Assembly: GCA_905178155.1 (NCBI GenBank)
Contig: CAJINV010000001.1
Location: forward strand, 1,305,767-1,369,766
Source of the DNA: Amoebophrya sp. A120
Taxonomy: Eukaryota > Protista > Dinoflagellata
Direction of reading: 5' to 3'
Length of the DNA: 64,000 nt
Shown here: positions 11,201 through 64,000 of the stretch, in pieces
Layout of the letters: every line of letters starts with the position of its first letter
How positions within the stretch are numbered: the first letter of the stretch is position 1
Translations under genes and position numbers: made by a program
Notes under the pieces: generated by a model
The model's input: only the letters and a program-made list of their open reading frames with translations
Database searches by the model: none
Told to the model about the DNA's origin: nothing

Positions 11201-14200
11201 ACAAATCCAGCATCTTGGCTCAAGACTTCTTGTCTTGTGGCCCATTTCCCACAATTAGAGGCGGGGCCGCCACCCCCGCGTGATCATCTTGTTTCAGGAG
11301 CTCATCGTGAGTTCCAAAGATCCGTAGCGGCTCTACATAACAGGCGCCGGGTGCGGCCGGTCAGCCTCTAGATCATCGCTAGCGTAGTTCGATCATTCTG
11401 ATAGTGATAAAAAGGAAAAGTGCTGCGTTCTTTTGTTGCACTCCCTCGGTAGGCACGCGCGTGCGTTGCCGAGCATCTGAGCGGCTCCTGCGTGACGAGT
11501 GTCACCGCCCGTCGTTTCGAGTTGGGCTGTCCTTCTTCTGTCCTCACGAGCCGTCCCTATCGGCGTACCGTTGTGGTTTCCTCGATCGCCACTTAGAGGC
11601 TCTCCGCGATGGTCTTCTTCGTCGGGTGGATAGCGGCGCGCATCGAGTTTATGCGGCCTGGGACTTCCGTGGAACCAGCACGAGCTTCCTGGCTTATGTG
11701 GTCCTGCTGCGGAGTGGGCAGTCGGGGTACCTGTCGCTGGTTGCGGAGGCCATCTCGAAGTCCCCGATAGTGGATGGAGTTCTCCCGCCCATCTCCGAGT
11801 CACGAGGATGCCGCGCCCACCAGCGGATTGCCCTTCGGCGCTGGAGATCAGGGACTTTTATTTACTTACTTATTATTTTTGTCTGTCCTCATCTGCGGCT
11901 CTGTCTATCGTGAATTTGCATAATAAGTAAGTCCACTGTACCTGCGCCAAAAATATACTTCTCCTCATTCGTTTGTCTTTGTGTATCTCGGTTTTTCCTT
12001 TTTGTTGTGTTGTGGTAGTGGATTATTTAGGGCCGCTTCCCTCATGGAAACCTTATTCCTGACCTCAGGCGCGTCGTAACGTCTCCTCTGGAAGCGGCTG
12101 TGCGCGGCTCTTACGTACAAGGTGGAGGCGGTGATGGTGTTGACGGGATGACTACGGAGATGGTTTTCGGATTATCTTCATCAGTTTTTCTTGCCGGGGG
12201 CACCGTGGCTGACCCATCTGTGTCAGTGCGCGGACCACACCATCAGCTGTGATAGCGGCGCCCCATCTGCGGCGTTCGGTGTCCCCCGTGCGCCGGGTCC
12301 TGCGTGGTGCGACGTTCTCGAAGCGGGCGAGCTTTGCGGCACCAAGGTGGTGGCGGTTGTGGTGAGGGCGAGACGCGCCCACTTTGACCATCCCCGAGTG
12401 CGACACCAAGGTGGAGGTCGTAACGTGGAGTGGGTTATCCGTCTCTGGCCACGAGTGGTGGTTTCCAGCGTGATGCGCTGTCTGTCCGACATCGCCCGCA
12501 GTTCTCCGGCACAGTGCTGTTGCGTTAGCAGTTGCTCTTCGAGATTGAAGCTGCGCAGGACGAAGACGAGGCGGAGCAGCTCTGACGGAACTGGGCAGCG
12601 CGCGGCCTTCGCACCAGGAGCGGAAGCCGATTACTCAGCTTTCTTCCCGGGGGCTCCGGGGCTGACCCATTTGTGTCGGTGCGCGGACCAGCCCATCTGC
12701 GTTGAAAGCAGCACCCCATTCGCGGCGTTCTGTGTCCCCTGTGCGCCGGGTCCTTTGCAGCGTGCGTGGCCTTCTTGCTCGGCTCGGCCTGTTTTGGTGT
12801 CGCGTCGGTGGGTGTGCGTCAAGCTGAGTGGAGTGGAGCGAGATGCGCGTTTTGTGCTTGGGGGTTGTTCGACGGGATTCTTTTTGCGCCGAGGATTTCT
12901 AGCTTGTGACACGCCGCGTGTTCCCGCGGACTCTGTTTTGTGCCTGCTCGTGCTCGGAGATGACGTTGCTGTAGCCGCCGGAGATCGCGGCTTTCCATGA
13001 TTTCCTACGATGCCGCTGGTCCTACAAGAGCCCTTTCGCCTTCATCCCAGTGCTGTCGCTGACAGACCTTGGGCTGATAATCCCGTTGCAGGAGGTTCGG
13101 TCCTTGGCGCGTCTTCGCCACCGGCAGGAGTCAGGATGGGTAGGTGGGTCTCCTTGTTATTGCCTGAGCTTGCTCAGGCCTTCGCTGCTTTCGGTGGCTG
13201 GTGGCCGCTCTTGAGTTTCAGGTGTGGGTCGGAGTCCGTTTGCCTCTCGTCAGTTTGGACGGAGTGCTCTCGTTCAGCCACCCCCCGGCGGTCGACTGTC
13301 GGCTATCTGGCTCCCCCAGCTCATGATTGCGGCGTTGGCTGGTGATGACAAGGTTGCGGACAGTTGACTTGTCATCTGTCTGGTTCGCTCACTTTGCTGC
13401 CACGACTGTTTGGTCCCCGGTCCCCTGAGGCGGGGGGATACGGGTTACCTGGTCGGGATGTCGCGCGGTAGGTGTCTCTCACGTCCCTAGCTCTTCGTAC
13501 TCGCCGCTGAGTACAGTCGAGCACCTTGGTTGATCGCCACACTGTTTCATAGTGCTGAAACGACCCGGCTTTCACTAGGGGGAGCATTCGTACATTTTGT
13601 GCCCTCCGGGACTATGCCTCTGCTTCCGTCTAAACTGAGGGGTCCACTTATCCCTCTCGGTATTCGGTCGCAGGGAAGGGTTGCCGGGGTCTCCCTCGCA
13701 TCGGTTCTCGATGTCGGGTGTGAGTTTGTGACTGCGGGGGCAGTGGTTGGCTTAGGTTTGTGGAGTACTTCTGAAAAGAGGCTCCCATTCCTTCTTCCAG
13801 GCAGTGATCCTAGATCGCTGCCACGCGGAGCCACCCCCGTATTTCACCCCCAGGGGGTTGTGGACCTGGCAAAACCGATGAGTTCGGGCTGCTGACTGTT
13901 CCACCTCCCCTAAGTGTGATCATTTCCGCCTCACGCCTCACGCCTCACAAATCCAGCATCAGAAATTCCGTTTTGGTACACGCCTGGTTTCAACTCGGCC
14001 TTGTCCAATTTGTATCCCGCACTGGTATTTGCGTTGGTTGTTTTGGTCATGACGTTTTGCGCATGACATTTCGCGCTACCACTTGTGTGTAGTTCGCGAT
14101 ACCGACGGGTGTCCATGTCGGTTACTCCGTTTTTTGGCCGTTTGCATGCGTCTCCACGTTGGTTTGTCTTGCGAGACTCTCCTTTTCTAGTGGTGGTTTT

Positions 14201-24198: not shown

Positions 24199-24721
24199 GA
24201 AATTGATTTAGAACTACTCGCGGCTCTTTCGCGAGAAATCAAATCGATCTCAGTCCGATTCGTTGTCCGCAAAGTAAATCTAAATTAAATCGTCCACTCT
24301 TTTATCAGCAATAAACAAGTCTCATGCAAGATAGTGACACTGGTTAATATTCTTTTATTTACACACTCACGACCAGCTGCCCTCTGTTCGTAGGAGGTCA
24401 ACAAGGTCGGAAAAGAGCAGTACTACACGATAGTACTGCTCTCAGTAATACGGAGTTTTGAATTTGGCTTGATTTCACAAGAGAAGTTTTGAAACAGAGC
24501 ATACAGGCTGGGGAAACTCATCTATCATTTGTGCTCCAAGTCGTGCTCTGTTCGTGGCTGCGAGATGAACCGAGTTAGAAGTAACTTCAACACAACTCTT
24601 GTACCGACAGAAAATGATCTGCTTAGCTCTTTTACGAAACCTCTCAGCTCTGTCGAAGCTCGGGCTTCGGAATTCTTGTAAAATGAATTTTGACAAGAAC
24701 TTCACAATCAGGACGCGGCTT

Positions 24722-25482
24722 GTGCGTGCGCAATGCCAGCGTAGACAGGTGCTCTCCTGTCTTGTGAATGCTAGCAAATGGTCGGCGAATGCCTTCCCAG
24801 CGTGTGGTGGCCTGCAATTGCAGGCGTCGAAGCAATAGGGCGGTGGCTGGCGAATGCCAGCGCTGACCCCACAGCTTGGCAGCGTCCAGCGTGCGTTGGC
24901 GTTGCAAGGGTGGCCAGCGAACGTTGTTCCTGGGACTCCTGCGGCCAGCAAAGAAGCGGCGGCGCCGCGAATGAGTGCCATGTGGAGGAGCGCCGCCCTG
25001 CACTTTTGTGCTAGGTATGCAGGACGCGTGCAGGGAAATCACGAAGAGCGCAGGCCAAGGGCTTGCGGGTGGCTCCGTGTTATGACGCGAGCGTGCCGGC
25101 CTCCCTGAGCAGCGCTTGGGATATTTGCGTGAGGTCGGCCCCCTCGTCGACGGATGTTTGTCGGCGCTTGGGAAATGTATCAACATCCGCTCCTCGCGGA
25201 CCTCACTCACACGTGCGCGCAGCGTCCGGTTCTCGCGGACCTTGCCCACACGTGCGTGCAAAGGTTTGCACGAAATCGATGACATGGGGGTAGCCTGCTG
25301 CGGCAGCTGCTTGCCCATGATCTTCCCTGCAGGGGGCCCGTGGCTGGCGCCGTCACGTCCCCATGATGTGCATACTGGCTCGAGGTGTCGCGGACACCAA
25401 CTACATAACAAAAAGGGCGGCTAGCTGTTGCTAGTGTTTCGCCCTCGCCCACCACTTTATCGAGACTCGCCGTGAAGGAAAT
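24722..25482. mobile_element. 761-bp GC-rich insertion flanked by a 43-bp exact direct repeat
   Basis: TAAAATGAATTTTGACAAGAACTTCACAATCAGGACGCGGCTT at 24679-24721 and 25483-25525. Confidence 0.75.
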
Positions 25483-25956
25483 TAAAATGAATTTTGACAA
25501 GAACTTCACAATCAGGACGCGGCTTCTGTGCAATTATCGAATGGCCTTGCCTGCAAAAAACGTATACGTTTGCAGGATGTTGAATTGGAGGGAATCGTCA
25601 TTCTTTCGCGCAGCGTCGGTAAGAACGAGTGGCTGTTGATATGTCGGTGAGAAGATTCATTTTGTCACTGTGAAGCAAGGCGAAGAACCAAGGAAATAGG
25701 TGCTATAATTTTTCGCTGCACGAGGATGGAGAGGCAGACGAGGCGAGGGTCGCACACGTCCATCGAACATCAACCTGTAGCTGAATTCAATTTTGGATTT
25801 TTATTTTATGATATCGCATCGATGACAGTGCTGGGAGCGACTTGCGCATCTGAACCTGTTGTTCCTCTCAATCAATTTAGTTAGTACACCAAAAACTACT
25901 GAAACATTCTTTGTGTCCTCCAGGAAGGACGATACGCTGGAACAAGCCCTTCCAAG

Positions 25957-28353: not shown

Positions 28354-29049
28354 AGTGGCTGGCGGGGTCGTGGTTCTTGCTGCGGTGCTTTGTGCGAGCA
28401 GTGGTCGTCAGCGTGTCTACTGAGAGCGTCGATTGTCACAGAATGTCGATATCAATAGAGAAATTGATGTAGCCTGAAATAGCAATGAATGTAGTCTTAC
28501 GCAAGCCAAATGTTGAATGCGAGAAAGAAACCCTTGTTTCACCTCTTGATTATATTAAGTATAGCGCAATTTGAAATCACTTTCGATACAGTGTAGCACT
28601 GCTACCCACTGCTCTCTTAATGTAAAAAACCAAAAACGCGAATTTTCATCGGAATAGGGAAAGCCCAGAAACGGAAATTGACAGACGGATGTCGCAAGAG
28701 GTGCGTGCACCTGCAAACAGTGTCGTGAGCTTTCGAAAGATGATTTTTACGGTGGTGATTTGCACCGAAGTGAACCTGTATGATATGGAATGCGGCTGGG
28801 CTCCGTGAGATGCCACGAGCTATTTACTTACTTAGTACAAATAGGAACAGGAAGTCCTACGAAGCCGACCGGCCAGTTCCGCCGTTGTCTCTTTTTTAGC
28901 GGCTGAGTAAGTCAGTGTTCGCCTCTACTGGTTGGTCTCAGAAGACCACACGAGAGAGAGCACAAATGTAGGGAATGCAAATGGCCGAGCAATGAGGGCG
29001 CTCGCTGAGGCGCCACAAAAAGAGTCCTAATGTCTAAGTACAGCCAAGC

Positions 29050-30700
29050 GCTCACGGAGTGCCGTGGCTAACTGAATCCAAAGCCTAGCGGGCGTCAGCC
29101 TCTCCTGCTCTCTGCGGGCCCTTTTGGATCGACTGCGCCAAAAGGCTGCAGCTCGTCGGTGTTGCTCTATTGCCTGGGCCGGCGAGGGCGGTCGGCGGCG
29201 TTGCTCTATTGCCGCCCGCTTGGTGGCCGCCCGCTTGGTGGCCGCCCGCCCTCTCGGTCGGCCCGTCGCGGCCGCCGGCGAAGCGAAGAACGGCGCCGCC
29301 GCCGGCGTTTTCCGGTGGGGACCTGATGGGCGGCGGGGCGAGACCGGTGTCGCGGGGGCTCGGGCCGATGTTTGGGCGTTCGGCCCGCCGCTGCCCCTCT
29401 GCCCCTGGCGGGCCCCGTTTCTTTGTCTGCTTCTTGCCGCGGCCGGGGGGGCGGGCGCCCTCGCCCCCAACGGTCGCACGCTCGCCCGCCCATCCTTGTT
29501 GCGCCCCGGCCGGGGGGCCTGCTAGCTAGCTTGCTACGTTCGCCCGGGCCACCGCCGCTCGGTGGCCCCGGGGATCGATGGGAGCCGCCCGGGGGGCGCC
29601 CAGCGGGGTACCGGAGGCGGGGGCGTTGCTTGCAGGCCGCACGGCAAACAGCCCCGCGGGGAAACTCCGAAGCGCCGCAAGGCCGGTAGGGGGGAGGCCA
29701 ATCATGCCAAGGAAGCCTGCAGCCCCGGAGCGCAAGGTTTGCGCCGACCACATGTGCGCGCTGGCTCATTGGGAAGGGCCCGCGGCCGGGCGCCAAAAAG
29801 AAAGCTTCCCAGAGAGAACATGCGCGCCCAGATGTCCCATCCTCTGCGACTACATAGCGGGAAGGCGGGCGCGGTAGGAATAAAAGAAGCCCCCGCAGAG
29901 GTGGAGGCATGTGAAGCGCGGAAGGCAGGGCGGGCCGCGTACTTGTGGCGCGGGCCAGTGCAGTGCTTGGGCGCGTGGGGCTTCTGCCAAGTCGGCAGGC
30001 AGCGTGCGAGCTCAGGCGGGGCTTGGGCCAGCGCCGAATGTTGCCCGCCGCCACAGACAGTTTCCGGGCGGCCCGGCGCGGCGGCTGCATCATCCACATC
30101 TATGGCGAAGCCGGAACCCCCGAGCCAGCCGCTTCGGCTAGGCCATCGATCCCGCAAGAACTTTCAAAGGACGGCGAGCAGTAGCGGGCCTTTGTTTCTT
30201 TTGGGACGGACCTCGCTAGCCAGGCCGGGCGGGCCATGCACCACCCTGGGCCAGCAGTTCGGCCAGGACCTAACCGCGGGCCATCCTTGGATGGCCTGAG
30301 GTTCGCAAGCCATCCAGGTCGGGCGGGCCCCGTCGGCCCGGGTGTTTTCCGTTGTTCCGGTCTCTCTTGCGAAGGAAGGCGCCAGCGGGCGCGCTTTTTG
30401 GTGGTGCATGCCCGGCGACGCATCTCAGCGCACGGCGCGTCTCCGGCCCCAACCTGGGTGGCTGGGCGCTCGCCTTTGCAGGCGGCGGCCCCCTCTTACT
30501 CTGACCTGATTGCGCCTCCCTTGGTCGGCTTCGGCCCGCCGGGCGTCGCGCTCTCTGCCAAGTGGTAAAGCGCGCTCGCAGCACGCGCACCATGCGGGCA
30601 CTTCGTTGCCTGGCTGCGTCCCAAAATGATGGCCGTGTTCGCGGCATATTTTTATTTTCCATTGTTCGCCATCCACCGCCCCTGAGGCGAATGTTCTGCA
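29050..30700. other. Very GC-rich island, probably an inserted non-coding element; boundaries approximate
   Basis: Abrupt compositional shift, short internal repeats (GCCGCCCGCTTGGTG x2, TTGCTCTATTGCC x2) and only low-complexity overlapping ORFs; no convincing TSD or TIR found. Confidence 0.4.
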
Positions 30701-42383: not shown

Positions 42384-43115
42384 GTAGAACAATTGGTATG
42401 AAATAAGTTCCGCTAGCTGCATTTGGCGGGCTCGGGCTGCCTTTTCTATTCTTGTCCTTACTTTCCCCTTTAATACGGAGCCGCGAGAGGCTTCCTTATT
42501 CACGACCTAGAGCTGCTTCATCCCGGTGGACGAAAATTAATGAACTGTGACAACTGTAAGTTGGAGACGAAGATCTTCGTTTCATGGAAATGTACGCAAA
42601 CTTTCTTTCTACACACACAATGTACACCACCATAAGTATACAATTAGATGGAGGCGATTTTCGTCAATGAAGGCTGGAACTTGTGCGAATGTGGGTGGTC
42701 ACGAACTCATCTTTCATCTGCTCTCAAGCAGTGTGTCGAGAATCTTCTATGTTCTGCTCTACTTTTTAACAACTACAAATTCTTCCACGAGCGCTGTAAG
42801 AAGTCGTCGCGAAATCAAGTGCAACAAGCAAAGGAAATGGCGGAGTTTGTGTAATACTCGTATGTATTGGCTCTTCTGGGAGCGTGAACGTGAGGCATTC
42901 AGGCTCTTGGTGAAGAAAAGTCAAAGGGCTGCTGACCAGTAGGGAGCGGAAGGAAATAATTTAGAGAACGTTGATGGAGAAAATCTTATGGGGACAAAAA
43001 GAAAGAACCGCGCAGCGATCTACTTTTGAAGGCAATGAATCTACTCGCAGCGGACTTCGCAGAGCCACCTTAGCACGGGACCTGCACCTCCCACCTTCGC
43101 AAGTCCAATCACAAG

Positions 43116-46100
43116 ATGGCGATCCCTGCCCTGCTCGAGGTTGAGATTCTCGAGGGGTCGGGGTTTAAACACGAGGGCTCGCACATGGTGGAGGCCAGAG
43201 TCGATGGCTTTCCGCCGCAGAGGACCGAGTGGGCGACGGACGATGATTACGCGTTCTTTTCCGGCGGAAGAACCGGAAAACGGTTTCTCAGCAGCGGTCC
43301 CCATGGCTGCATGCAGTTCAACAACGTCGTGTATCTGCAACAGATGGACCGGTTTGTCTACTTCACTTTGATTCACAAACGCATGTTTTCCGACCACAAG
43401 CGGTGTGGCGAGGCGTTCGTGAAGCTAGCCGCGCCCGTCGAGAAGAGCGTGTCGACGGCGAAGCTTTTCACCGTCGCGTTGGAGCACAAAATGCGGTTCG
43501 CTGGGTCGCTACAGGTGCGGATTTCCTACAGCTACCTCTCGCGGAACGGGCAGGCGCCGCGGATCGAGCGCCCGACAGGAGGAGCAGCGTATGCGAGTGC
43601 AAGAACAACTACTACATCCAGAGTCGGAGCATCTACATCAATGGCAGCCCCGCCGCGCGCTGGCACAACTTATGCGCCTCGTGCGGACGGGAGGGTTCTC
43701 TCCGAGGAGGAGGCGACCCGGCGGGAAATCGAGAAGGCTTTGCGCGCGGACGGCGGAGATTTGAGCGCGCAGGCAGCGATGCTGAACCAGTTTGAGCAGC
43801 GGAAGCAAGCCTCCTCGCCCTCCGCCTCCTACCATGCCTCCAGTCCCAGCAGTCATGGTAGGGGCTCGCCGGCGTCCAGCCCCGGAGGCAGTTCGCCCGG
43901 CACCACCAGCCCGGCGATGAGTCCGCAAATGGGAACAAATGTCGAACAAAGAGCCAGGCCACGAGGGCCACCACCGCGTGATGTAGCGGCAAGTGGTCCT
44001 AAGAGCACCTCGTCCTCATCCCGCGTGCACTATGTCCACGAGCCCCCGCCAACGCCACCGGACAGTCCCTTTCGCGGTCCGGGCTTCAGCAGCGCTGGTA
44101 GCTCGCCCGTACCGCCGTCGGCTGGTGGTCGTGTGCAACCGAATGGAAGTAGCCGTCATGATCAGCAGTCCTCTTCGACTTCCGGCCGGCGAGGAGAACC
44201 GCCGCCGAGCAACTATGGCAGCAGCAGTACTAGCAACGCGCACACGAATTATAGTACAACTAGTAGACCACAAGGCGCCACGAGTACAACTTCTAGTGCG
44301 GCAGCAGCTTCTAAAGGCAGACCACCCAACACTGCATCAGCAAGCGCCCCCGCGGGTGCGACGAGGCGCGCGACGGACCCAAGACCCGACCCCCGCCCGA
44401 AGAGCACCGGTGGTGGCCCTACAAGTGCCTCGGCGGGTGCGAAGTCAAATGATAACCATCAATCGCAGCCGCCGCCGAAGTATGAATTGCAAAAGCATCC
44501 GCATCGTACTCAGTAAAGATCGCATGACAAATTGGCTCAGTATGAGAAACGAAATTTGTCACGCGAACTCACCTCAAGAAGGCGATCGAAATTTGTAAAT
44601 GCATGATTGTGATTTTTACGCGATACTTTTGCACAGGATACGAAGAAGAAAGCCGCGCCGCCACCGCCGGAGCCGGAGATTGACCCGGAGGAAGCGATAT
44701 GCACTCCGCAAATATTTATAATGTCGGGGTTTGGAAAGTTCGACTTCGAACTTGTGATGCTGGTCTTACTTTCCTGCGAAATCTGTATTGCATAACAAAA
44801 GCCGCAGCCTCTTTTGTCATGCAAAAACGCACTTTCTGTTTGTGTTTCTCATGCGAGCTGCGTATGCGAAAGCGTTCTCGAGGACGAAAGTGGTCATGCT
44901 TGGCTTCATTCGGAAGCGTTTCCACCATCGTTCACATTTTAGCATCACAAGTATTTCCAGACCGCCCAGATTGATGATTTGCCCTGCATAAGCGAAGCGA
45001 GAAAAAGAGCTGGAGGAGAAGAGGAAGGAGATCAAAATGCAAGCCAGGGCGAGCCAGCTGGCGAAAGTGCGGGCCATGAGCGACACCTCGTCTCCGTCGC
45101 CCGCGACGAAGTCACCGTCACCAGTGTCCCCGGTGCAGCGGCGGGTCATCGTAGAGAAGGTGCGCAGCCCGGACACAGTGGGGGCCGCGTCATCATCGGT
45201 GACCGCAAGCCCGTCCGGGAAAGACGTAAGTAGTCCCGACGTGTCCGCATCTGGCAGTCCCAGCGCTGCGGCCGGGGGTGCGACGACGCCGGCGAAGGCC
45301 GCGTCGAGTATTGATCCGAATATGAAAGCGAGCAGTGCTGGGGTGAACAAGAAAAACAGCGAAGCTGCTGGTGGTGATGGAGCGAAAGAACCGCAACAAC
45401 AGCCCGCACCGGACGACGAAACTGCAACAGGAACAACACATCAATTTAGGTCGGCCGCTTCGAAACAAGCCAGCGCCCCCGCCACGGCTTCATCATCATC
45501 TGGGCTACCAAGAAGTAAAGCGTCAGCTGCGTCCGCCACCACCCCTCCTCCCGCAGTGGTTTCAACGGCACCAGCAACAACTGGTGCTCGCGATCCGTTT
45601 GACTTTGAGGTGCCGAGCGAGAAGGGCGAGCGCTTGCGCAAATTCCTCCATTATCCACGAAAAGAACGTTGTTAGTGTAAATTTGTGATTCGCAACATGC
45701 AAGATGATTGCGTCCGTCATGCTTGGCATCCATTGTAGGGTCCATCAAAGGGCGTTTTCACGACGTACTATCTGCGCATGACAGGTTTTTGCTGTCATGC
45801 CAGACAGATATGCTGTTCCTCCAAAAAAGTTACAATGTTTTTTTTTCTTGGATATCCATACGAAGAGGAACAGTACGAGCACTCGTGGTCCTGTTGCAGG
45901 ACCTGCTGCCAACAATCCCTACAACGACGCAGTTTACGGACACGGGCAGATGATGGCCCCGAAGACAGAACGCTTTATGGAATAGGGAATAGGGAGAGAT
46001 AGGGAGAGTAGGGAGATAGGGAGAGTCCCCCTAAAAGGGGGCAGCAAAAACAAAACCAAACTGATCGCAAACAGCATGGCACGGCCACGACAACATCTTT

Positions 46101-49100
46101 CGAAATCTGGGGTGGAAATGCTTCCGAGTACCCCCCTCCTCGGCGGCTCCTCCCGGGGTCGGGGAGGCGCGGAACCTTCCCTGAGGGGATTTATCCTCTT
46201 GCGGGCCCGTAAGGCTCAGGTCTTGCTCATCAGCTGGCGAAGGCGGAAAGGTAAAGTGGCCATTTCAAATTTCCTTCGATGAGGGAAAGTTGAAGTGGCC
46301 ATTTCAAATTTTCCTCGATGGGGAAAGTTGAAATGGGCAACTCGATTTTCCTTCGATGAGGGAAAGTTGAAGTGGCCACTTCAAATTTCCTTCGATGATT
46401 CAACGGGCGCGCGGTGCTCGTTCGCCTTCGAATCGATGCAACGCGCGCGCGTGCATGAATGCGCGCGCGAAATTTTTTTTGGTTCTACGGCTTACCAAAA
46501 CGGAGCATACCATCGCGATTCAAGGGGAATTAGGTTTACCACGGCTCTCCCTATTGACCTATTCTCCCTATTCCGCTCTCCCTATTCCCTCGATTCACTA
46601 CAGTCATATATACAACAATCCCTACAACGACGCAGTTTACGGACACGGGCAGATGATGGCCCCGAAGACAGACCAAGCAGTTAATCTATATACTATAGGG
46701 GCAAGAAATGTACTTGCTCCTCCCAAAGCTTCTGAAGGTTTGACCTTCTGAAGAGCTTCTGAAGGAAAAAACTTGATTTTCAACCTTCAGAAGGTCAAAA
46801 AAACTGGCCGGCTATTTTTCAGTGTAAAAAGCGCAGCATGAGCTCGCGCAAACGAAATCATCGCTCATTTTTTGCAACCTTCAGAAGGTTCAGTCTTCTG
46901 AAGGTTTTTTTTCACCTTCTGAAGAATTTTTTCGATTTTTTGACAAAAAATTCTTCAGAAGACTAAAAAAACGACTTTTTGAAACCTTCAGAAGGCAGGC
47001 ATTCTTCTGAAGAAGTGCGTTTTATGCCGACGTCCGAAACCTTCAGAAGACTGCCATTTTTTAAACTCAAAAAATGACGCAAAATCAGGACAATCAAAAA
47101 AAACTAAGAAAAACCTTCAGAAGACTAAAATTTCTTCTGAAGGTTTTTCGAAAATTGTCGCACTTTGACAAAAATGAAAAAAATAAAAAAAACACACCTT
47201 CAGAAGACTTTGATTTTTGAGTCTTCTGAAGGTACATCTTCTGAAGAACCTTCAGAAGGTCCAACACAATTTGGTGTTTTTGTTGCGCGCACCCAACTAA
47301 AAACTCGATTTTTTGTAAAAACGTGCGCAAAAAACCTTCAGAAAGATCTTCAGAAGCTTCGGAGCTTTTTCTGTTGCGCCGCCGATTTGTTGTTCGAGCG
47401 CCAAAAGCACTTTACTGCCACCTGTTTTTTCCTAAATGCAAGAAATATTATGAATGGGTCTGTCAAGTATTTCTGTTTTCTTGTTGAGGATTTTTTCCAA
47501 GCGGTGGACGGCAGAACGCAATGAGATCGAAGTTGCTGCTCCGCCTCAAGCTCATTTTTTTTTTGTGCTACGAGTGGATTTACGACATGACGCTACGAGG
47601 AGGACAAGTTTATGGCGGACGCTGCGAGAAGCAGAGATCAGGCGCAAACTGGACAACCAAAACTGAACGAGCACCTCGGCACTCTATCCTTAGGCAATCC
47701 TCAACAACAAACATGAAAATACTTGACGCGCAAATATTTTTTTTCTTTCATAATCGACGGGAAGAGCAAGTACGAGGCTTGCCCCGCGACGCAGTCGCGT
47801 GGATTGGTTCTTACGGACACGGGCAGATGATGGCCCCGAAGACAGACCCAGTTAATTGAAGGACTATAAGGGAAAAAATCAAAACTACCTTCAGAAGAAA
47901 ATTCTTCAGAAGACTCTTCAGAAGAGTCGACGAACCTTCTGAAGGTTCTAAAAAGAGCAGTTCAAAAAACGACCAAAGTTGAAAGGGAGTCAGATCCTGC
48001 GCCGCGAAAATTTATTTTTTTTTGTGAACCTTCAGAAGGTAATTACCTTCAGAAGGTCTGACTTTGACCTTCAGAAGGTTTTTGATCAAAAAAATCTTCT
48101 GAAGGTTTGGCACGCGTTGGCTTTGGACCTTCTTGAAGGTTTTGACCTTCTGAAGGTTAGTTTTTCAAAACCTTCCTGAAGGTTAAAAATGAAAAGGGTC
48201 GCTTTTTTCCAAAAAATGCAAAAAAAAAGGGCCAACCTTTTTTGACCTTCTGAAGGTCGAAAAACCTTCAAGAAGGTCTTCTGAAGGTTGGAGGCTGAAA
48301 ACCTTCTGAAGAATTCTTCTGAAGAAATGTCGGCTCTTCTGAAAGTTTCTTCAGAAGGTTTCTCCTGAAGGTTTGCCGAGCGTTCTCCGCGATGAGAAAC
48401 AAATTGCGCAACGAAAACGCCGCGACAGTGGCGCGAAAAAAGTGCAAAAGTGAAAGCTTTGCCAAAGCGCAACGATTCCGGATCTGATTCTGCAACAAGA
48501 TGCAAAGTGTCTTGTTGCAGAATCAGATCTCCGCTTCACCGGATCCGCAGCAAGGCCAATGCGAGCGATGCTGCCCTGCGTTCATTGACTCTTGCGGGCG
48601 GTACGCCGCCGGAAGCTAGTAAGCTAGGGCGCTCAGTCTCTGGAAGCTAGTAAGGCCAATTTCTCGGCTGGGCCAGGGGTCTGACAAAAGTTGAAGCCAT
48701 CAAAAAGGGCAAAAGGATTCAGGATCTGACTACGTAAAAAAACTGCAACGCTTCGCCTTTCCTGATCTGGTGCGCAGCTTTTTCCTGGGTTCATGAGTTA
48801 CGCCACGAGACGCACCAGGCGAGCTTTTTCCTGGCTTCTTCCTGATCTGACCGGCCCTCTGAAGAGTTGCCAATAAACCCGGCCACTTTTGTAAAGCGAG
48901 ACGCGGCAGCGGCCCTCAAAGATGGGGGCTAGAAGCCGGCCGCCTTTGGCTTTTCCAAATTTGGCCACCCTGAGAGAAACCAGACGGGGCTACTTTATTA
49001 GGGGCGAAAAAGATTTTTTCAAGACAGACACAGAATGTGACAGAGATGCGGGCCAATCTTAGTTCTATTCTGAAGAGTTGTCGCATTTTTTCCCACGCGG

Positions 49101-52076
49101 CGCACGCCGCGTGGATTGGTTCTTACGGACACGGGCAGATGATGGCCCCGAAGACAGACCAAGAGTCCTTCTCTTCCAGTTCCTCGGGCGGATCCCCGTT
49201 TTCGCGCGTACCCGGCCCTGGCTTTGCGTACTCTCCGTTTTCGTCCACACTGCCGCCGGAGGGCCGCGTGGGAATAATCAATGCAGCTACCGGGGGAACC
49301 GGAACAAGTAGGGGCTATAATAATCTTCACACCGCCCCGCGACCGCCGGTAAACTACATGTCCTCGAAAGAGCACGTTGTGCAGCCTCCGCTTTACGGCT
49401 ATGGAAATCTTCATGCCGATGCCGGGCCCGGGGGCGGTTCTTTTCAACAAGCGCCACATCAAGGGCAACATATTTACAACTTGCAGCCCGAAGATCATGT
49501 TGACACTTCTGTGTATAATCATCATTCTGGCCGCCCACCAGCAGCAGAAATTGCCGACTCGCAAGTAGAGCGGCCAGGAGCTGCTGCGACGGCGACAGGG
49601 GCGCACGGACCGTTCTACAACCCGCCGGGTGTCGTGGGTCGAGTGGCAGGACAAGAGAGGTTCTTTAATGGGAACATGAACAACATCAACGCGCAAAATG
49701 ATTATACCAGCGACAACTACGGACACGCACGACATCCTCCTGCAGGGGTACCGAATTTGATTCCGTCTGGCGCCACCTCCGCGACGAATTTTTCCTCGCA
49801 CTACTCGCAGGGAGGTTTGTCGTCCTTCGTGATGCCAGCAGACCCATACGCCGGTCCACCGTGGGCCCCCGCTCCATCGCAGTTTTTGTCCTTGCACGGC
49901 CCGGGGTTCGTGGCGCAGGGAGACCTTCCCACGAGTGCGCTCCATTTTGATCATATTCCCGCTTCGCACCAACACCAAGCCGGGAGGGGAAGGGCCGCGG
50001 CCCAACCAATGTCGGTGAAGATCTTTCCTGGTCAAGAACTACATGCTCCTGCTGCAGCTCCTCCAACAAGCGAGACGATCGTTCCAAGAACGATCGTGGA
50101 GCAACGAGAGCCGAACCAGACGGCCTCTAGAAGTACTACAGTTGTGCGGAAAGATTTGGAGATCAAGCCGAAGCGACTTTGGAACGACGATGATCCCTGG
50201 ACGTCGAGTGTGATCCTCAGTGAAGATGAGGAGGACGAAAGAGCCGCTCAAAAGTTCCTCGGCCCCTCTGGACAGTTACAGTTGTCCGGAAAGAACAACT
50301 CTGCGGGACTACAGTGGGAAAGTTTCCTCGGTCGCATCAACGACGACAGCAGCGACGGGGAGGCACACTGGCTGGACGACGAGGTGGAAGATTTTGTTGG
50401 AACAAAACCCCTATATGCCACCACCAACCAGGAGACGCAAATAGAGACAGCCCTGCAGGTAGCGAAGCCGGGTACTGCGGGTCGTGCACTGCGGCTCAAT
50501 CTGGGTAGTAGTCGTTCCGCAAATAACGACGCGACTTCCACGCTGCCTGGAAAGAGCCGAAACCCATTTGCGGAAGTTGTAGAGCTGCCCGGGGGCAGCT
50601 CGAGCTTGCTAAGTAGTGGAGGAGGGCGGGGCAGTAGTACAACGACCGAGATGATGATGAATTCTGTGGCAGTAGAGGACACGACGTCAAGAGGACATTA
50701 TCATCGTCATCATCATCATCGTCTTTCTAGCGGACAGCAGACGACTTTTGAAGACTTGAAGATTCAAGTTCAGGAGATTCTGAATGCAGTAGCGGTCGTG
50801 AACAGAACAAGCAGTACTTCTGGTTCATTTGGGAAGATGCCGCGACAAACCGAGACCACGACGCCAAAAATTGCTGACCACGACGTCCACAGTAGAGGCC
50901 AACAAAATAGTATTAAACTGCCTTCCACGAAGATGAAAGAACTACAAGCCCCTGCAGCTCATGTGCTCTCCGGCACTGATCTGCACCTGTCCTTGAGCAT
51001 CCGACAGCAAATGACTTTCTACGACGAAGACCACGCGCGCAGGCCCGCCCTCTGGTTCGATCCCGACCGCGAACAGAAACTGAAGCTCGCCGCGGAAAGC
51101 GAACGGCAGAAACGGTTTGCGACGTTGCTGCGCAGTGTGACTCTGGATCAACAGGCCGCGCCGAGCGTCGACGTGCAGGCGGTGCTGCGGGAGCATAAAG
51201 AAGGAGCAGTCTTGGTTGTGAAGACTGATGCTACAAAGGAAATAATTAAAACCGCTACTTGTAGTTCTACCGCCGAGTTGATGTTGAATACAAACAGTAC
51301 TAGCGGGAGGTCCTGCGGCTTCAGCGGGGGAAAAATCCTGAATGGGGACGTCGAAAACAGTTCAAATTCTTCTATCCTATGTAGAAACGTCCGCACCCCA
51401 GAGTCAAGATGGGGAATCGGCTAGACAAATCGACAAGTTTTGGCTGTTTTGCATGACAAATTTGGACTCGTAGTGTAGTGCTGTTGGAGGTAGTTCAGCA
51501 GCATAACAGATCTAGTATACCATTCTGATTGGAGCATGACAAATTCCAAAACACGAATAGAAAACGCTTCTCTATGGGGCTCTGCATGAGAAACATTCTC
51601 AGCATGCAGATTTGCATTACAACTGTGGGATGGGGACGTTTTTAAATACGATATCTTCGTCCCCTTCGTCAGGAGATCTACTCTGGATGAACGGGGAAAA
51701 GAACGACCCGAAAAAAATAAATGGTGCGACCATTCTTAGTTCATCTTCTTCATCATCCTCCGCTTCCAGAACTGTGGAGGAACAGATGGCTTCACCACCC
51801 CCACCGCCACCACTGGAGAAAGGAGTAAATGAAAAGACAGCTGTATACAGTGCAAAAGTGTATCGTCTTCGTCCGAGGAAGTATCTATGTTGAATCGCAT
51901 GACAAATTTTCTCACAAAGAAAATTGGTAGTTGTCATGCATGGCTAGTGCTATTGGCATTGGTACGAGCAGTTGTACGATATTATCTGTTGCAATGCATA
52001 AGCTGCTGACTCTGGCGAGGTGAAGGCTCCCGTGAACGCGGGTTTTTCAGAACTGTTGCAGTTCGCAGCATCCTGA
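43116..52076 (+). CDS. Protein with an N-terminal C2-like domain and a long low-complexity tail, interrupted by five introners and three long-duplication inserts
   Basis: C2-like pattern LLEVEILEGSGF..MQFNN..VYFTLIHKRMFSDHKRCGEAFVKL..AGSLQVRISY. ORFs 43116, 45037, 49037 and 51612 join in one frame (..KFLH|TKRN..NNPYNDAVYGHGQMMAPKTDQESF..) when all inserts are removed. Confidence 0.7.
44481..44640. mobile_element. Introner family E
   Basis: Family E ends; TSD CGAAG. Confidence 0.9.
44698..44990. mobile_element. Introner family A (degenerate)
   Basis: TATGCA...TGCATA with decayed family A TIRs; TSD AGCGA. Confidence 0.85.
45652..45854. mobile_element. Introner family J
   Basis: TATCCACGAAAAGAAC...TTTTTCTTGGATA; TSD TCCAT; inverted relative of 58449-58657. 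Confidence 0.9.
45970..46612. mobile_element. 643-bp insert flanked by a 60-bp exact direct repeat
   Basis: 45910-45969 = 46613-46672; subterminal (ATAGGGAG)n versus (CTCCCTAT)n inverted arrays. Confidence 0.8.
46245..46396. repeat. Four tandem ~39-bp palindromic units
   Basis: Unit GAGGGAAAGTTGAAGTGGCCA(T/C)TTCAAATTTCCTTCGAT with core palindrome TTGAAGTGGCCACTTCAA. Confidence 0.85.
46678..47810. mobile_element. 1133-bp CTTCWGAAG-rich insert with long target duplication
   Basis: Starts CAGTTAAT, ends hairpin+ATTGGTTC; duplication 46637-46677 recurs at 47811-47848 (38 bp) and 49123-49163 (41 bp). Confidence 0.8.
47849..49122. mobile_element. 1274-bp CTTCWGAAG-rich insert, same termini as 46678-47810
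   Basis: Starts CAGTTAAT, ends CGCGTGGATTGGTTC; 38-bp duplication 47811-47848 = 49123-49160. Confidence 0.8.
51373..51653. mobile_element. Introner family C
   Basis: Family C ends; TSD TCTTC. Confidence 0.88.
51844..52000. mobile_element. Introner family E (degenerate)
   Basis: TATACAGTGCAAAAG...TTGCAATGCATA; TSD AGCTG. Confidence 0.85.
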
Positions 52077-57805: not shown

Positions 57806-60800
57806 ATGCGAGTCAATAAAGCGAGAAGTTCTTTCTGCTCCGTGGTCCTGGTGGTGTCTGGTGGCGGAAATTTATTTTCCAACACAGGATGGTGCATAGT
57901 GAAGAACCTTGTGCACAGCAAGAAGCAGCAGCAAAACCAAAACCGCATCTTCGTGGTGGACCACGAGGCTGCTTTGTCGACAAGTCGTGACGCCGAAACG
58001 AGCGAAAATATCGTCCAGAAAAACGCGTCTACTCCAGAGTTGTCATGCAGATTTGCACTTACAGGAAAAATGGAGTGGAACGCCTGCAGTGCGCACCCCA
58101 TGAGAGGCATTTTTTCCATGTCGTTATCGTCTAGTTTCAGCATTTGTAAATAAAATACCGGAAGTGAAGTCTTCACTGTGAAGAGCAAGTGGATATATAT
58201 AGGATTTATGATAAAAATAAAATATGGCTTTGTGAAGATGCGTCTGTCCCTGCCAAACTGCACTGCAATACAGAATACACAGGAATAAACCGCCCCGCGT
58301 GAGGACAACTCCCAAAACTTCTGTTGCTGAATTTCCAACTCAACTCTGGGGTGCGAGCGACGTAGTTCTTACACAGGATAGAAAGTAACGCGGATCAAGT
58401 ACTAGAAGACGCGTTTTCTCCAGCAGCGAGTGAATTGGAGCAACAAGCTATCCAAGAAAAAAATATTGTAGGTGTAACTTTTTTGGAGGAACAGCATTAC
58501 AAATTTGTCTGGCATGACAGCAAAAACGTGTCATGCGCAAATAGTACGTGAAAACGCCCTTTCATGGGCCCTACGATGCATGCCAAGCATGACAGACGCA
58601 ATTATCTTGCATGTTGCGCATCACAAATTTACACCAACAGCGTTTTTTTCTTGGATGCAAGCTGTCGGCGAGCAAGGACAGGTGGTGCCGGCCACGTTCG
58701 ACGAGACAAAACAATGGATGCAGTACAACTACTACAAACAGTATCTTCCCGTCGAGGAAAATTATCCGCAAGACTTCTACTCTGCAAGAAGACCAACCAC
58801 GGCGGAGCTACTCGACTTCTTATGCATTGCAAATAAACGAAATAATCGCCATCTTCGTACTAAAAGTATTGCATTTTAAGTACAGACATACAATCTTTTA
58901 CTTTTTTAGCAGGAAAAACAAAACTTGTAAATGAATGCGGACTTGTTCTTACCTTAGGAAGCAATGGATACCTACGTCATTATCATGCAGAGCTGCAATT
59001 AGTACGACGAGTGCGATTTGCTTTTGCAGTGGATGCGTCTCCTGTAGCGGCAATGTCACCGACATCTCCACCCCGTCCTTCGTCGTTCCCCCGTGGAAAA
59101 TACTGGTCCAGCACAGTTTGAGGCTGCAAGGGCTGGTGGACAATCTGGATGCGTTCGTCCACACGGAGATCGGAAAAAGTAACCTGGACCAGCAAAGCGA
59201 GACGCTGGCGTTGTTACTTCCGGAGAGATGGGGCCTGACCGCGTACGATGCCGATCTAGCGCTGCGCACGCGACGAGTGACCGGGCGCTGGGCCCCTTTT
59301 TTGAAAAACCTTTACTGCCCACCTGGTCGGTTGCAAGCGTTCCAAGACCGCGATCGCAATCAGGACTTGTTGCTGGACAAGGCGGAGCAGGTCGAGTGGG
59401 GGTGCCCCGTTTCGGCGGACACCAACAAGGATGGGTTTCTGGACGGTATCGAATGGGGGCAGCACTGCGACTATCAAATGTAAAAATGTCTGGGTCTGGA
59501 AGAATGCAACTTGTCATGCTGTCTCTGCATTCTAAAAAAATCTGTATTGCACGACCAGCAAGAAGGGTCCAGTTTGTGCTACATGGAGAGGGTATTTCTC
59601 ATGCGGGATAGGCATCAGAAAGCCCGCTAAAAATCTGTGATGCCAGGCGATGCATTACAGACGTCATATGTCATGTAAAATCTGCATGACAAGTCTGGCA
59701 CTCTTCCAGACCCAGACATTTTTACATTTGATAGCGACCGGGAAAACGAAATAAAGGGAAGTGGGCCAGCGAAGGACCACGACGTTGCTGCAATAGAGAA
59801 CAAAAAACAGCCACCCCAAACAACAAGCACCTGCCAACATAAAGAGCGCGCATCCTCCTCCGACGACACCCACCATCCTCCTCCCGGACCTTCCTTCCAT
59901 CCTCCTCCCCGGCCTTTCCTCCTCCCGCCGGAACCTTCCATCCTCCTCCCGGCCCTCCCATCCTCCTCCCGGACCACCCATCCTCCTCCCCGGCCTTTGG
60001 TCCTCCCTCCGGAACCTTCCAGCCTCCTCCCGGATCCCCCATCCTCCTCCCCGGCCTTTGGTCCTCCCGTCGGAGACTTCCATCCTTCTCCCGGACCTCC
60101 CAGCCTCCTCCGGGGCCCTCGCTCAATCCTCCTCCGAGGCCGCTCATCCTCCTCCCCACCCACCCTTCCATCCTTCTCGGGGACCTTCCATCTATCTTCC
60201 TCCCGGGCCTTCCTTCCTCCTCCGGGACCCCCTTCCTCCTCCCAGACCTGCGATCCTCCTCCGCTGCCTTCCATCCTCCTCCGGGGCCTTCCATCCTCCT
60301 CCCGGACCTCCTATCCTCCTCCGGGTCCGTCCATCCTTCTCTCGGGCCTCCCATCCTCTTCCGGGGCCTCCCATCCTCCTCCCCGGGGCCTTCCATCCTC
60401 CCCGGGGCGGGCACACGCGGGGGAGGTCGGAGGGGGGGCTGGAGGAGGAGGCCGGAGGACAGGAGGGGGAGGTCGGAGGACAGGAGGAAGAGGTCGGAGG
60501 ACAGGAGGAGGAGGTCGGAGGACAGGAGGAGGAGGGCGGAGGACAGGAGGAGGAGGTCGGAGGACAGGAGGAGGAGGTCGGAGGACAGGAGGAGGAGGTC
60601 GGAGGACAGGAGGAGAAGGTCGGAGGACAGGAGGAGGAGGCTGGAGGACAGGAGGAGGAGGTCGGAGGACAGGAGGTGGAGGTCGGGGGACGAAAGGAGG
60701 GAGCTCGGAGGGCCGGGCCAGGAGGTCAGAGGACGGGGCCAGGAGGTCGGAGGACCGGGCCAGGAGGTCGGAGTGGGGCCGCCGGGCGGCTCCGGTCCTG

Positions 60801-63800
60801 AAGTGGGGCCTCAGGCGGGCGCCTTGCGCAACCGCTAGACCTTCCCGGCAGTGCTGCGTCCGGGTTGGCTGCTCCCCCATGCGAAGCAATATAATGCCCA
60901 CGCCACACTACGCCCACACGACAGGCGCCAAAGGCGCACTTGGGGCTTGCGGTGGTTAACCACGGTGGGACGTTCCCGCTCTCGCCTGATAGTTGTTGGC
61001 TTCATTGCTTTTGTCTCGCTTTTTCCTGTAGTTGTTTCTGTTGGCAGTTGCTATCTAGTGGGGCTGTGTTCTCGGTGTTCGATTGCTAGTAAAGGGAAGT
61101 GGGCCAGCGAAGGACCACGACGTTGCTGCAACTACTCACCAGAAGGAAATTGTAGCAGATACTTCGCGAATTTAAGCAGATCCAAAAGTTGCCGCTTTTT
61201 ATCATTTTATTTGGCATTGTGAGGACGAAGGTCAAGCCTTGGTCGTCAAGGTAGCAGGTCCAGGTGGCACTCCCCATGACGTCCTGGCTGCATGCTGGAG
61301 AAGCTTACCGCTGAATCCGCTTGCGCGAGGGTTACGCACTCGCTTGGGCCGATAGGGATATTAGAGAGGGCGACTGAGAAGGGCGGTCGGCCCCTCCAGC
61401 CAACAAAATTCGGCATTGCTGCCCCAGTTGCCCTCTGACCTGCTTCTAGTATTTTTGTTGGAGCAGGCGCATTCTTTAGCCTCACCATGATGGTGCTCCA
61501 TCTTCATTTTTGCGCTATGCAGCCTCACCTCGTGCGCCTGCGTTGCCTTGCCCCTGTTTTACGATGTGGCGTCGCGTTTTCAGTCTTTACGGCACATTCG
61601 TAGAGGCACACGCGGCCGCTCGGAAGCAAAGCAGCCCGCCGCGACGTTTTTACTCGCGCGCGCCAAAGGTTTCGGCGCAGGGGTGTTGCGCGTTTCATAG
61701 GGTGGCCGGGAATAAAAAAAAAACAGCTGGCGGCCGCGGCGCGGAGCCACTGCACGAGACGCGGCGCCACTTCGCGAAAGCATTAAAAGCGAACAAATGT
61801 TCCGCGCGCAGGTCGCGGAAACAATTCGCAAAGCCAATAAGTTAGGCCCTCCGTGTGGAGGGTTGAGTGAAACTGTCGTGCTTCGTTGGACAGGAAAGCT
61901 CGGCTTCTTCTTGCGTCGCTAGCGGCCCACAAAGAAACCGGCCCCTCCGCCCGGAGGGGGCGGCTTCTTTAGGACCCGGAGGTTCCGAAAGTGCCAACTT
62001 TCGTTGTTTTCTGGGTAAAAGGTAGCGGTCCGGCTATCAAACAAACCGCCCCCTCCGCGCGGAGGGGTCTGTTTCTTTCTGGGCCGCCAGCGGCGGGCGA
62101 AGAAACCGAAAATAAGAAATCGACCCCTCCGCGCGGAGGGGTCGATTTCTTATTTTCGGCGCGCGCCGAAGAATTTGATTGAGGCGCGCCACGTTTCGCC
62201 CTACATTTTTTCGTTGTGTTGTTTCTGGAAAATCAAAACTCATGGTCACGCGGCAACTTTTTGCCCCTGGCGGTGTAGGGGTCGACCTTCGTTGGATGGA
62301 GTTAACTCTGCAGTAGTGGCGCCCGGTTTTCTTACAAGCAGCCGGCCGCCTTGTGCGATGGATCGGCGACGCACTCTCCCCTGCCCTCGCCAAGGCAGCC
62401 GCAGCTTCTCTGGCGCCGGGCAATCTGCTTAAATTATTGAAGTATCTGCTTCTACTACCTGATACACAGGGGAAGTGGGCCAGCGAAGGACCACGACGTT
62501 GCTGCAACTATACCGGGAAGTTCTATTGCAAATAAGCGGCAATGCCGCAAAGTCCTGCGAAATCCATGCNAGTGGGCCAGCGAAGGACCACGACGTTGCT
62601 GCAACTATACCGGGAAGTTCTATTGCAAATAAGCGGCAATGCCGCAAAGTCCTGCGAAATCCATGCCCCGCGAACTTGCGCCTCTGTTGGCCTGGGACAG
62701 AGCGGAAAATATTTACTACAAAGGGCCGCCGCAGCACTGTGAGTGCATTTGGGGAGCAGGGCCTCGGTATTTGGAGAGGAGAAGTCCTTTCCTTTGTAAG
62801 CTGACCGCCTTTCACTACGCACCATAGCCAAAAGCTGGCAGCTGCAAAGTCGAAACCGCTCGCGAAAGCGCTGCGAAAGAGGCAAGACCAAGAAAGGCCA
62901 CAAGTAAGTAGGAAAGGCCATGGGCCACCCCAGTAGCCCTGCCAAGCAAGAGGCTGCGCCCGTCGCAACGTCCTTCCGCCAACGAGTTTCCGGACCGGGC
63001 TACCTAGCGGCCGCCGTGTCGCCCTAGCTTTATTTCGGCCGTTTTAGGTGCATGGGAGTCCTACACTATTTTTTTAAAACTGTCCTTGTCCTACACTCAG
63101 GGATCCTACTTATACTCACGGCTCGAGACCTTAGACCCAGCCTCTCCTGCGCTCCGGCGCGCGTGTTGTCGCACACGCGCTGCGTGACAGGGCGACGCGG
63201 TGGGCCGGGGGCTGGCGCGACGTTCCGTTGCATGTCGAACACGCGCTGCGTGACACGGCGAGGCGGTCGCTGGCCCGGGATGGGGGCGACGTTCCGTTGC
63301 ATATCTTGGATTCTAGATTTAAATAAAAACAACCTATTCCGGGGGGGAGGTTGTTTTTATGTGTGGAGAAATTTAGAATCACGGCCACAGTGCAAGATCC
63401 TGAATTTCGTCGCACATAAAAACGACCTATGCCCGGGAATAGGTTGATCTTTTGCAAATCTAGAATCCAGGATATGGGAGAGGTTGATTTGATTGCTCCG
63501 AAATTTTCGCAGACACAGAGTCAACCTTTTGGAAGCAGAGGTTGATTTTATGGTCGCGAAATTTCCGGAGGCATAGAATCGACCTCCTGGAAGCAGAGGC
63601 TGATTCTATGGCCACGAAGTTTTATTTTCTACAGCCATTGGCTGGAGAAGACGCGGCCCAAAATGCGCATGCTTTGCCAATTTTAGTTCAGGCCCTATGC
63701 CAGATTAAGGAAGCGCAATGGACGAGACCGGGATTTCCGCAAAGAAAGCAGGATTGCCGCTTATTTCAGTATAGAGAGTGGGCCAGCGAAGGACCACGAC

Positions 63801-64000
63801 GTTGCTGCAACTATACCGGGAAGTTCTATTGCTTCACAGGCTACACCAAATACCACTGCTACACGCGGGAGCCGTCGTGATTATGATGTGAACTACGACG
63901 AGAACACCGACAGCGGTTTATCCTGAAGAAAAACATGCCCACCCCATAGGTGTCATGCAAATCCGCAAGCCTAAAATCAAATGTCTCTCATGATGATGAT
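57806..64000 (+). CDS. 3'-truncated multi-exon gene with an EF-hand motif, interrupted by introners and three long-duplication inserts
   Basis: In-frame joins across 58009, 58449, 58821 and 59472; canonical EF-hand loop DTNKDGFLDGIE; reading continues CDRENEIKGSGPAKDHDVAATIPGSSIASQATPNT.. when the inserts at 59794-63776 are removed. Confidence 0.65.
58009..58380. mobile_element. Introner family C (degenerate, enlarged)
   Basis: TATCG..CCAGAGTTGTCATGC...AACTCTGGGGTG..CAGGATA; TSD GAAAA/GAAAG. Confidence 0.8.
58449..58657. mobile_element. Introner family J
   Basis: TATCCAAGAAAAAAA...TTTTTTTCTTGGATG; TSD CAAGC. Confidence 0.88.
58821..59035. mobile_element. Introner family E (degenerate)
   Basis: TATGCATTGCAAA...TTTTGCAGTGGATG; TSD CTTCT/CGTCT. 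Confidence 0.8.
59472..59733. mobile_element. Introner family A
   Basis: Perfect family A TIR; TSD GCGAC. Confidence 0.93.
59794..61089. mobile_element. 1296-bp foldback-like insert flanked by a 42-bp exact direct repeat
   Basis: 59752-59793 = 61090-61131; imperfect inverted ends; CCTCCT tract followed by GGAGGA tract. Confidence 0.8.
60455..60690 (+). repeat. 21-bp minisatellite GGAGGACAGGAGGAGGAGGTC (~11 units)
   Basis: Directly visible tandem repeat. Confidence 0.9.
61135..62469. mobile_element. 1335-bp insert flanked by a 41-bp exact direct repeat
   Basis: 61094-61134 = 62470-62510; 28-bp subterminal inverted repeat (61154-61181 / 62423-62450, 25/28 match), each 19 nt from an end. Confidence 0.82.
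62627..63776. mobile_element. 1150-bp insert flanked by a 56-bp exact direct repeat
   Basis: 62571-62626 = 63777-63832; inverted repeat AAATAAGCGGCAAT at 62627-62640 / 63753-63766; internal foldback at about 63300-63476. Confidence 0.78.
63919..64000. mobile_element. Left part of a family C-like introner, truncated by the window edge
   Basis: TATCCTGAAGAAAAACATGCCCACCCC..TGTCATGCAAAT. Confidence 0.7.

Follow-up and report, generated by a model that had tools for sequence, protein, structure and literature searches.

Stacked introner-like inserts at one exonic site of Amoebophrya sp. A120 and their possible role in building an in-frame protein repeat

Introduction

About two thirds of the introns of Amoebophrya sp. 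A120 are non-canonical (PMC7789003, Table 1). The genome paper describes many introners bounded by direct repeats of 3–5 nt, reports that U1 was not found, and records that its authors saw no clear splice signature in the introns (PMC7789003). Introners derived from helitrons occur in other species (PMC12130899), and the Helitron2 elements CRe-1/2/3 of Chlamydomonas can leave target duplications of 7–19 bp, with some of 44–443 bp (PMC3627910, section 8).

Here we describe a 64,000-nt stretch of the A120 genome (the window, in whose own coordinates all positions are given) that contains two arrays of long inserts separated by duplicated coding sequence. Our reading, to which we assign a probability of roughly 0.45, is that several A120 families of 0.6–1.3-kb rolling-circle-like introners reuse one exonic site, building protein repeats and exposing a splice code. 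If this is true, each return insertion duplicates 13–21 codons, the inserts are spliced at their own ends, and transposon insertion would lead directly to protein repeats that keep the frame, in a lineage known for the rapid evolution of its proteins.

Host gene and structure of the first array

The source organism is Amoebophrya sp. A120, and the first 149 codons of the host gene are 100% identical to the annotated protein P0003 (1600 aa). An AlphaFold model of aa 1–149 (pLDDT 83) retrieved C2 domains as the top PDB matches in a fold search (best E 8.7e-6), and on this model the N-terminal domain is a C2 fold; a Pfam scan of the host protein, including aa 1–149, gave no match. The initial annotation had spoken of C2-domain reading frames, which is right as to the fold and wrong as to the plural, a single C2-like domain (aa 1–149) being located at the N-terminus of the 1600-aa host. 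Among 15 relatives of this domain, three (P0014, P0016, P0018) were fused to a caspase-family (Peptidase_C14) domain. No orthologs spanning the repeat were found, P0007 being alignable at the N-terminus alone. The features of the gene and of its array (array 1) are as follows.

43116–43562, plus strand: start of host gene GSA120T00011052001 (P0003, 1600 aa) with its predicted C2-fold domain (100% P0003 match; structure model and fold search)
45910–45969, plus strand: repeat copy 1 (60 nt), close to the 3' end of an exon reaching 45974
45970–46612, plus strand: insert 1 (643 nt); annotated intron 45975–46614 (640 nt)
46615–46680, plus strand: mini-exon of 66 nt with repeat copy 2 (46613–46677); sole P0003-compatible placement
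46678–47810, plus strand: insert 2 (1133 nt), with Helitron2-like ends; annotated intron 46681–47809 (1129 nt)
47810–47851, plus strand: mini-exon of 42 nt with repeat copy 3 (47811–47848); P0003 placement
47849–49122, plus strand: insert 3 (1274 nt), of the insert 2 family; annotated intron 47852–49121 (1270 nt)
49122–51371, plus strand: long 3' exon opening with repeat copy 4 (49123–49163); P0003 alignment, and X3 contig from 49123

An exact-repeat search returned the array just as the initial annotation had drawn it, with three inserts between four coding copies at 45910, 46613, 47811 and 49123. An exact 60-nt repeat is present at 45910 and 46613, copies 2 and 4 share 41 nt, and copies 2 and 3 share 38 nt, which makes the duplications 60, 41 and 38 nt long, in agreement with the 38–60 bp given there. 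All four copies have a 36-nt core in common (45934, 46637, 47811 and 49123), and four exact 36-mers within 3.3 kb are far beyond chance occurrence. When the flanks are joined through a single copy, the reading frame stays free of stops over 1496 codons (43074–51424), bearing out the claim that removal of the inserts leaves the frame intact, and the proposed history of repeated insertion with target duplication is likewise supported. The same annotation had remarked that the repeat lacks the AGGT needed for exact canonical splicing; indeed, no GT/GC/GA..AG or AT..AC register exists within the array 1 repeats, whether per unit or over the whole array, a lack that is to be expected because most A120 introns are non-canonical. 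The longest ATG-started frames within inserts 1, 2 and 3 encode 72, 116 and 56 aa, respectively.

Ends, family and target of the inserts

Seven inserts with long duplications were identified in the window, and only inserts 2 and 3 are alike. Their likeness is confined to the ends and to a palindromic 9-mer, with a global identity of 0.58 against 0.55 for shuffled sequence; the CTTCWGAAG motif occurs 18 times in insert 2 and 14 times in insert 3. Insert 1, which carries purine/pyrimidine subterminal inverted repeats, is unrelated to both and has no further copy within the window. Insert 3 carries a 10-nt asymmetric inverted repeat and a 3' hairpin. In this family the 3' asymmetric inverted repeat is situated upstream of the hairpin (–11 to –13 kcal/mol), 28 nt from the end in insert 3 and in the metagenome locus L002 and 25 nt in insert 2, thereby falling into the interval of 20–30 nt before the hairpin that marks Helitron2. 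At the 5' end, where Helitron2 has its inverted repeat 0–2 nt from the terminus, the offset is 16–17 nt. A 5' hairpin using this repeat is found in insert 2 and is absent from insert 3 and L002. The sequence of the inverted repeat varies among inserts 2, 3 and L002 with pairing preserved, and the inverted repeats of inserts 2 and 3 are subterminal and do not begin with TAT. The A120 introner definition names an inverted repeat of 8–20 nt that links both ends.

The 3' end of the family recurs as loose ends in X3 and at the metagenome loci L002/L019 (a single locus) and L006; the other 24 of the 27 metagenome matches, which showed no similarity to the window, were treated as chance. The metagenome assembly concerned, JACKZZ01, includes an organism resembling A120 that carries the insert 2/3 family, and L006 also carries ordinary introners. 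All six right flanks (the window, three from X3, L002 and L006) read TTANRNAC, a motif derived from these same flanks and whose TTA was forced by the search pattern for L002 and L006. The full-length copy at L002 has no target duplication, so that a specific target is combined with absent or variable duplication, as in Helitron2. Since TTANRNAC occurs 34 times in the window, the motif does not account for the pile-up. The first four bases of insert 2 (46678–46681) and of insert 3 (47849–47852) are identical to those standing before the target in copies 1 and 2, a feature that the L002 copy does not show. These four bases may be target-derived, in which case the duplicated units would measure 45 and 42 nt and the element would lie inside the second copy.

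The insert 2/3 family appears to work like Helitron2 by analogy of its ends and target. Because its 5' repeat sits deeper inside than in Helitron2 and a transposase was not found, the inserts are not classed as members of Helitron2; no autonomous partner was found, and viral scans gave four unrelated matches, two of the scans returning nothing. In the mechanism that we propose, non-autonomous elements would insert and repair would duplicate a long, variable target stretch; inserts 2 and 3 would enter immediately 5' of TTANRNAC, by rolling-circle integration of the Helitron2 kind. For these two inserts we give the rolling-circle route even odds.

For this integration step, a competing account is that a non-LTR retrotransposon carried the inserts along in SINE-like fashion, its two nicks setting the long duplication. 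In favour of it, non-LTR elements are present in A120 (PMC7789003), long variable duplications are made by R9 (126 bp) and by Dualen elements (median 900 bp; PMC9977147), and inserts 2 and 3 have a duplication with a fixed left edge. Against it stand the asymmetric inverted repeats with the 3' hairpin and the full-length L002 copy without duplication. The inserts also lack a long frame and a 3' poly(A) or tandem tail, with which a tail-less SINE would still be compatible. We regard a SINE-like origin as doubtful. A group I or II self-splicing intron was rejected, as none of 29 Rfam matches reached the gathering score and none was an intron family.

Excision of the array 1 inserts

P0003 carries the repeated peptide four times, at aa 717, 738, 753 and 767 (spacings of 21, 15 and 14 residues). 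Exactly one intron placement per junction is compatible with P0003, and the resulting model equals P0003 up to aa 1516. The annotated introns of 640, 1129 and 1270 nt are all non-canonical and uniquely placed; three unique placements in a transcript-based model agree with the non-canonical intron of the A120 introner definition. All three junctions retain a few insert-derived bases in the mRNA model, the cuts in inserts 2 and 3 fall at homologous relative positions, and the array 1 introns add 21, 15 and 14 codons in frame (63, 45 and 42 nt). Skipping of either mini-exon would be frame-neutral because of their lengths (66 and 42 nt).

The A120 gene models were obtained from transcript and protein alignments, ab initio software having been judged unfit (PMC7789003, section 25), and the three junctions would therefore exist in RNA. 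Gmove links junctions through a graph to the longest frame (PMC7789003), and the four copies therefore need not all lie in a single mRNA molecule. Judged from sequence and gene model, each insert is likely spliced at its own ends, so that four peptide copies would stay in the mRNA. The initial annotation had suggested removal of the inserts at the RNA level or by DNA recombination between repeats, leaving a single copy. The first of these routes gains support from the P0003 splice sites at the inserts' own ends; neither recombination nor collapse to one copy is supported as the main outcome, given that P0003 keeps four.

All three array 1 introns start with N-T-A and end with A-T-N5. For comparison, the donors of three A120 introner families are N-T in 67–71%, and in 56–62% once GT donors are set aside (56 of the 58 A120 rows of PMC12130899, Dataset S2). 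In all six exonic inserts of the two arrays, the predicted pairing of the ends is stronger than in shuffled sequence (z between –2.2 and –6.5; –5.4 for insert 1). We propose that each insert would leave as a non-canonical intron with the N-T-A start and A-T-N5 end seen in the annotation, its two ends brought together by the predicted base pairing, and that only those insertions would survive whose duplication plus end offsets makes a multiple of three. Non-canonical excision at the insert ends, combined with survival of in-frame insertions only, is in our judgment probable.

A second array and the boundary rule

Two further features with long duplications are located in the window.

59752–63832, plus strand: array 2, with unrelated inserts at 59794–61089, 61135–62469 and 62627–63776 and duplications of 42, 41 and 56 nt
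24679–25525, no strand assigned: single insert of 761 nt with a 43-nt duplication, apparently intergenic

The boundary rule was read from array 1 alone and then applied elsewhere. Sites obeying it were in frame for all three array 2 inserts, with the donor within 3 nt and the acceptor within 1 nt of the ends; splicing at these sites would remove 59793–61088, 61132–62468 and 62629–63777 and gain 42, 39 and 57 nt with stop-free read-through. By chance, an insert would have such sites with a probability between 0.013 (narrow windows, picked after seeing the data) and 0.13 (windows of 8 nt); for three inserts together the figure is 2e-6 to 2e-3. Splicing of array 2 is a rule-based prediction. Canonical splicing within the array 2 repeats has single GA..AG registers only. 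The single insert at 24679–25525 has no in-frame rule sites on either strand.

Exactly one rule-obeying register was present at all eight of the nine other annotated junctions that could be resolved. The check is in large part circular, as any TAT...ATA element with a 5-nt duplication necessarily satisfies the rule. The window is rich in such TAT...ATA introners of 150–320 nt; 21 of 34 candidate pairs carry a direct repeat, and it measures 5 nt in all 21. Because it is exactly 5 nt long, these introners are length-neutral under the rule. The N-T-A ... A-T-N5 code could cover most non-canonical introns of A120, and the clear signature missed in the genome paper was probably obscured by short repeats that blur the intron borders. 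For the recognition of non-canonical introns without U1 in Amoebophrya, the unambiguous borders of these inserts provide a precise, testable rule.

The left edges of the array 2 duplications shift by 4 nt. A single N at 62570 is flanked by an exact duplicate of about 96–97 nt (62474–62666), which is likely a scaffolding artefact. Two annotated proteins correspond to the array 2 exon, each with one copy of the repeat and each differing from the window by one residue; on account of this difference they probably derive from a paralog outside the window. A further protein search found no multi-copy protein model for array 2, and the single copy suggests the ancestral state at this exon. A Rubicon/DEF8-type zinc finger, considered as the array 2 host on the basis of a sequence motif, was rejected as the annotated frame is another one. 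Protein P0005 starts within 57806–58834, and its later part is P0004, one residue off the window; it is probably a chimeric model jumping to a paralog outside the window. Elsewhere, two long regions (about 11300–13950 and 29000–30700) have a skewed or high G+C composition; the former seems to break up an ordinary introner, and both are possibly larger mobile elements.

Alternative accounts of array 1

The RNA-like contigs of X3 skip three ordinary A120-type introns just upstream of array 1. Within the array, one contig breaks off at 45963; its successor starts at 49123 and continues without interruption to 50300, where the examined stretch ends. These ends bear on the possibility that the whole 3189 nt is lost inside the repeats, by RNA processing or DNA recombination, and that one peptide copy is left. 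They match exactly the simulated raw graph that contains a one-copy mRNA together with unspliced insert 3, whereas the graph of a four-copy mRNA breaks at 45941 and 49134, unlike X3; the contigs would fit four copies only if loops of 60–65 nt were pruned, which the depths make plausible. One-copy removal also agrees with the stop-free one-copy join and with the single copy carried by the annotated proteins of the array 2 exon, which, however, probably come from another gene copy. It is contradicted by P0003, which requires three junctions with insert bases, and by the boundary rule: none of the 61, 42, 39 and 37 one-copy registers in array 1 obeys it, and the count is zero in all eight tests over both arrays. 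An apparent one-copy product could also result from slippage of the reverse transcriptase where repeats lie close together. On balance, we consider one-copy removal improbable and retain splicing of each insert at its own ends.

Depth in X3 amounts to 13.8 over the upstream exons and 72 over the downstream exon, and parts of inserts 2 and 3 (their 3' parts) are covered at 13.9. As insert depth is about equal to upstream exon depth, splicing may be inefficient. The same figures would be expected if the inserts were so poorly spliced that the gene is effectively split, its 3' exon mostly transcribed or trans-spliced from within insert 2 or 3. A 3' depth bias would, however, yield the same pattern, and contig depth reflects expression poorly. 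The three gains each keep the frame, and this suggests that the full protein is under selection; a split gene is, in our view, highly improbable. As for the remaining runs, X1 and X2 contain 87% and 85% of the sequence words and may be the source data, X9 and X10 contribute no reads, and X11 contributes 343 reads at 90–95% identity over one introner only, so that these last three runs do not bear on the array.

An assembly artefact, in which different single inserts at one site, carried by separate alleles or cells, were concatenated by way of the repeat, is likewise highly improbable: the assembly does consist of short-read scaffolds ordered on Nanopore contigs (PMC7789003) and array 2 does contain a gap with a duplicated flank, but copies 2 and 3 differ in extent and are each self-consistent, the gene model uses both mini-exons, and the authors split scaffolds where Nanopore reads showed breakpoints (PMC7789003).

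Origin of the stacks

At least five unrelated families are represented across the two arrays, and the extents of the copies fit sequential insertion at a hot spot and crossover of alleles within the duplications equally well. In the last step of the proposed mechanism, stacking would arise either by repeated hot-spot insertion or by crossover within the duplications between differently loaded alleles; this is the weakest part of the reading. A process of targeting or of allele stacking is suggested by the occurrence, within 15 kb, of two independent stacks made up of unrelated elements. The array 1 inserts, themselves likely mobile, likely build a protein repeat insertion by insertion.

Comparison with known systems

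The arrays bear some resemblance to CRISPR-like and casposon arrays, in which a Cas1-type integrase duplicates a fixed repeat; in the present arrays the duplications vary in length and position. The published introners of A120 (PMC7789003) share with our inserts the genome, repeated non-canonical introns, paired ends and target duplications. They differ in that the reported direct repeats are 3–5 nt long and length-neutral, compared with 38–60 nt retained in mRNA and stacked at this locus; inserts 2 and 3 are also longer than the 40–1000 nt covered by the intron analysis of that paper. Amino-acid-adding introners (Gozashti et al. 2025, PMC12130899) are, like these, transposon-derived introns that alter the length of the host protein. 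Of the 58 A120 rows of that study, the 56 considered include no element classed as a helitron, and their listed duplications reach at most 11 nt. Direct repeats at intron borders are likewise known from dinoflagellate IRIBs (PMC5032977), where they are 2–11 nt, contain GG and occur once in the mRNA, and from the ILEs of Polarella (bioRxiv 2020.10.14.339549), whose duplications are 3–8 nt.

On the side of the mobile elements, CRe-1/2/3 of Chlamydomonas (PMC3627910) resemble inserts 2 and 3 in their 3' asymmetric inverted repeats 20–30 nt in and beside a hairpin, in a 5' T, in a fixed target, and in having copies with and without variable duplications. Unlike inserts 2 and 3, which encode no protein, have the 5' repeat 16–17 nt in and target TTANRNAC, the CRe elements encode Fanzor1, and the relevant sections of PMC3627910 do not describe them as introns. 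Replitron-1/N1 (Craig 2023, PMC10288648), an HUH element, inserts in an oriented manner, makes variable duplications and has fuzzy ends with additional bases on one side, much as inserts 2 and 3 open with four bases also found before the target; its terminal repeats are short and direct rather than inverted, and it is not described as an intron in the corresponding parts of that paper.

The initial annotation knew of no description of this intron or element type. Introners of A120, introners that add amino acids, and the variable duplications of Helitron2 and Replitrons are in fact published, and it is the combination that was not found. Searches of the open-licence literature brought up no account of stacked arrays, of this boundary rule, or of long duplications that persist as coding repeats. 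Introners, added amino acids, short border repeats and HUH-type variable duplications are hence the known components, and the long retained duplications, their stacking and the splice code appear to be what this locus adds to them.
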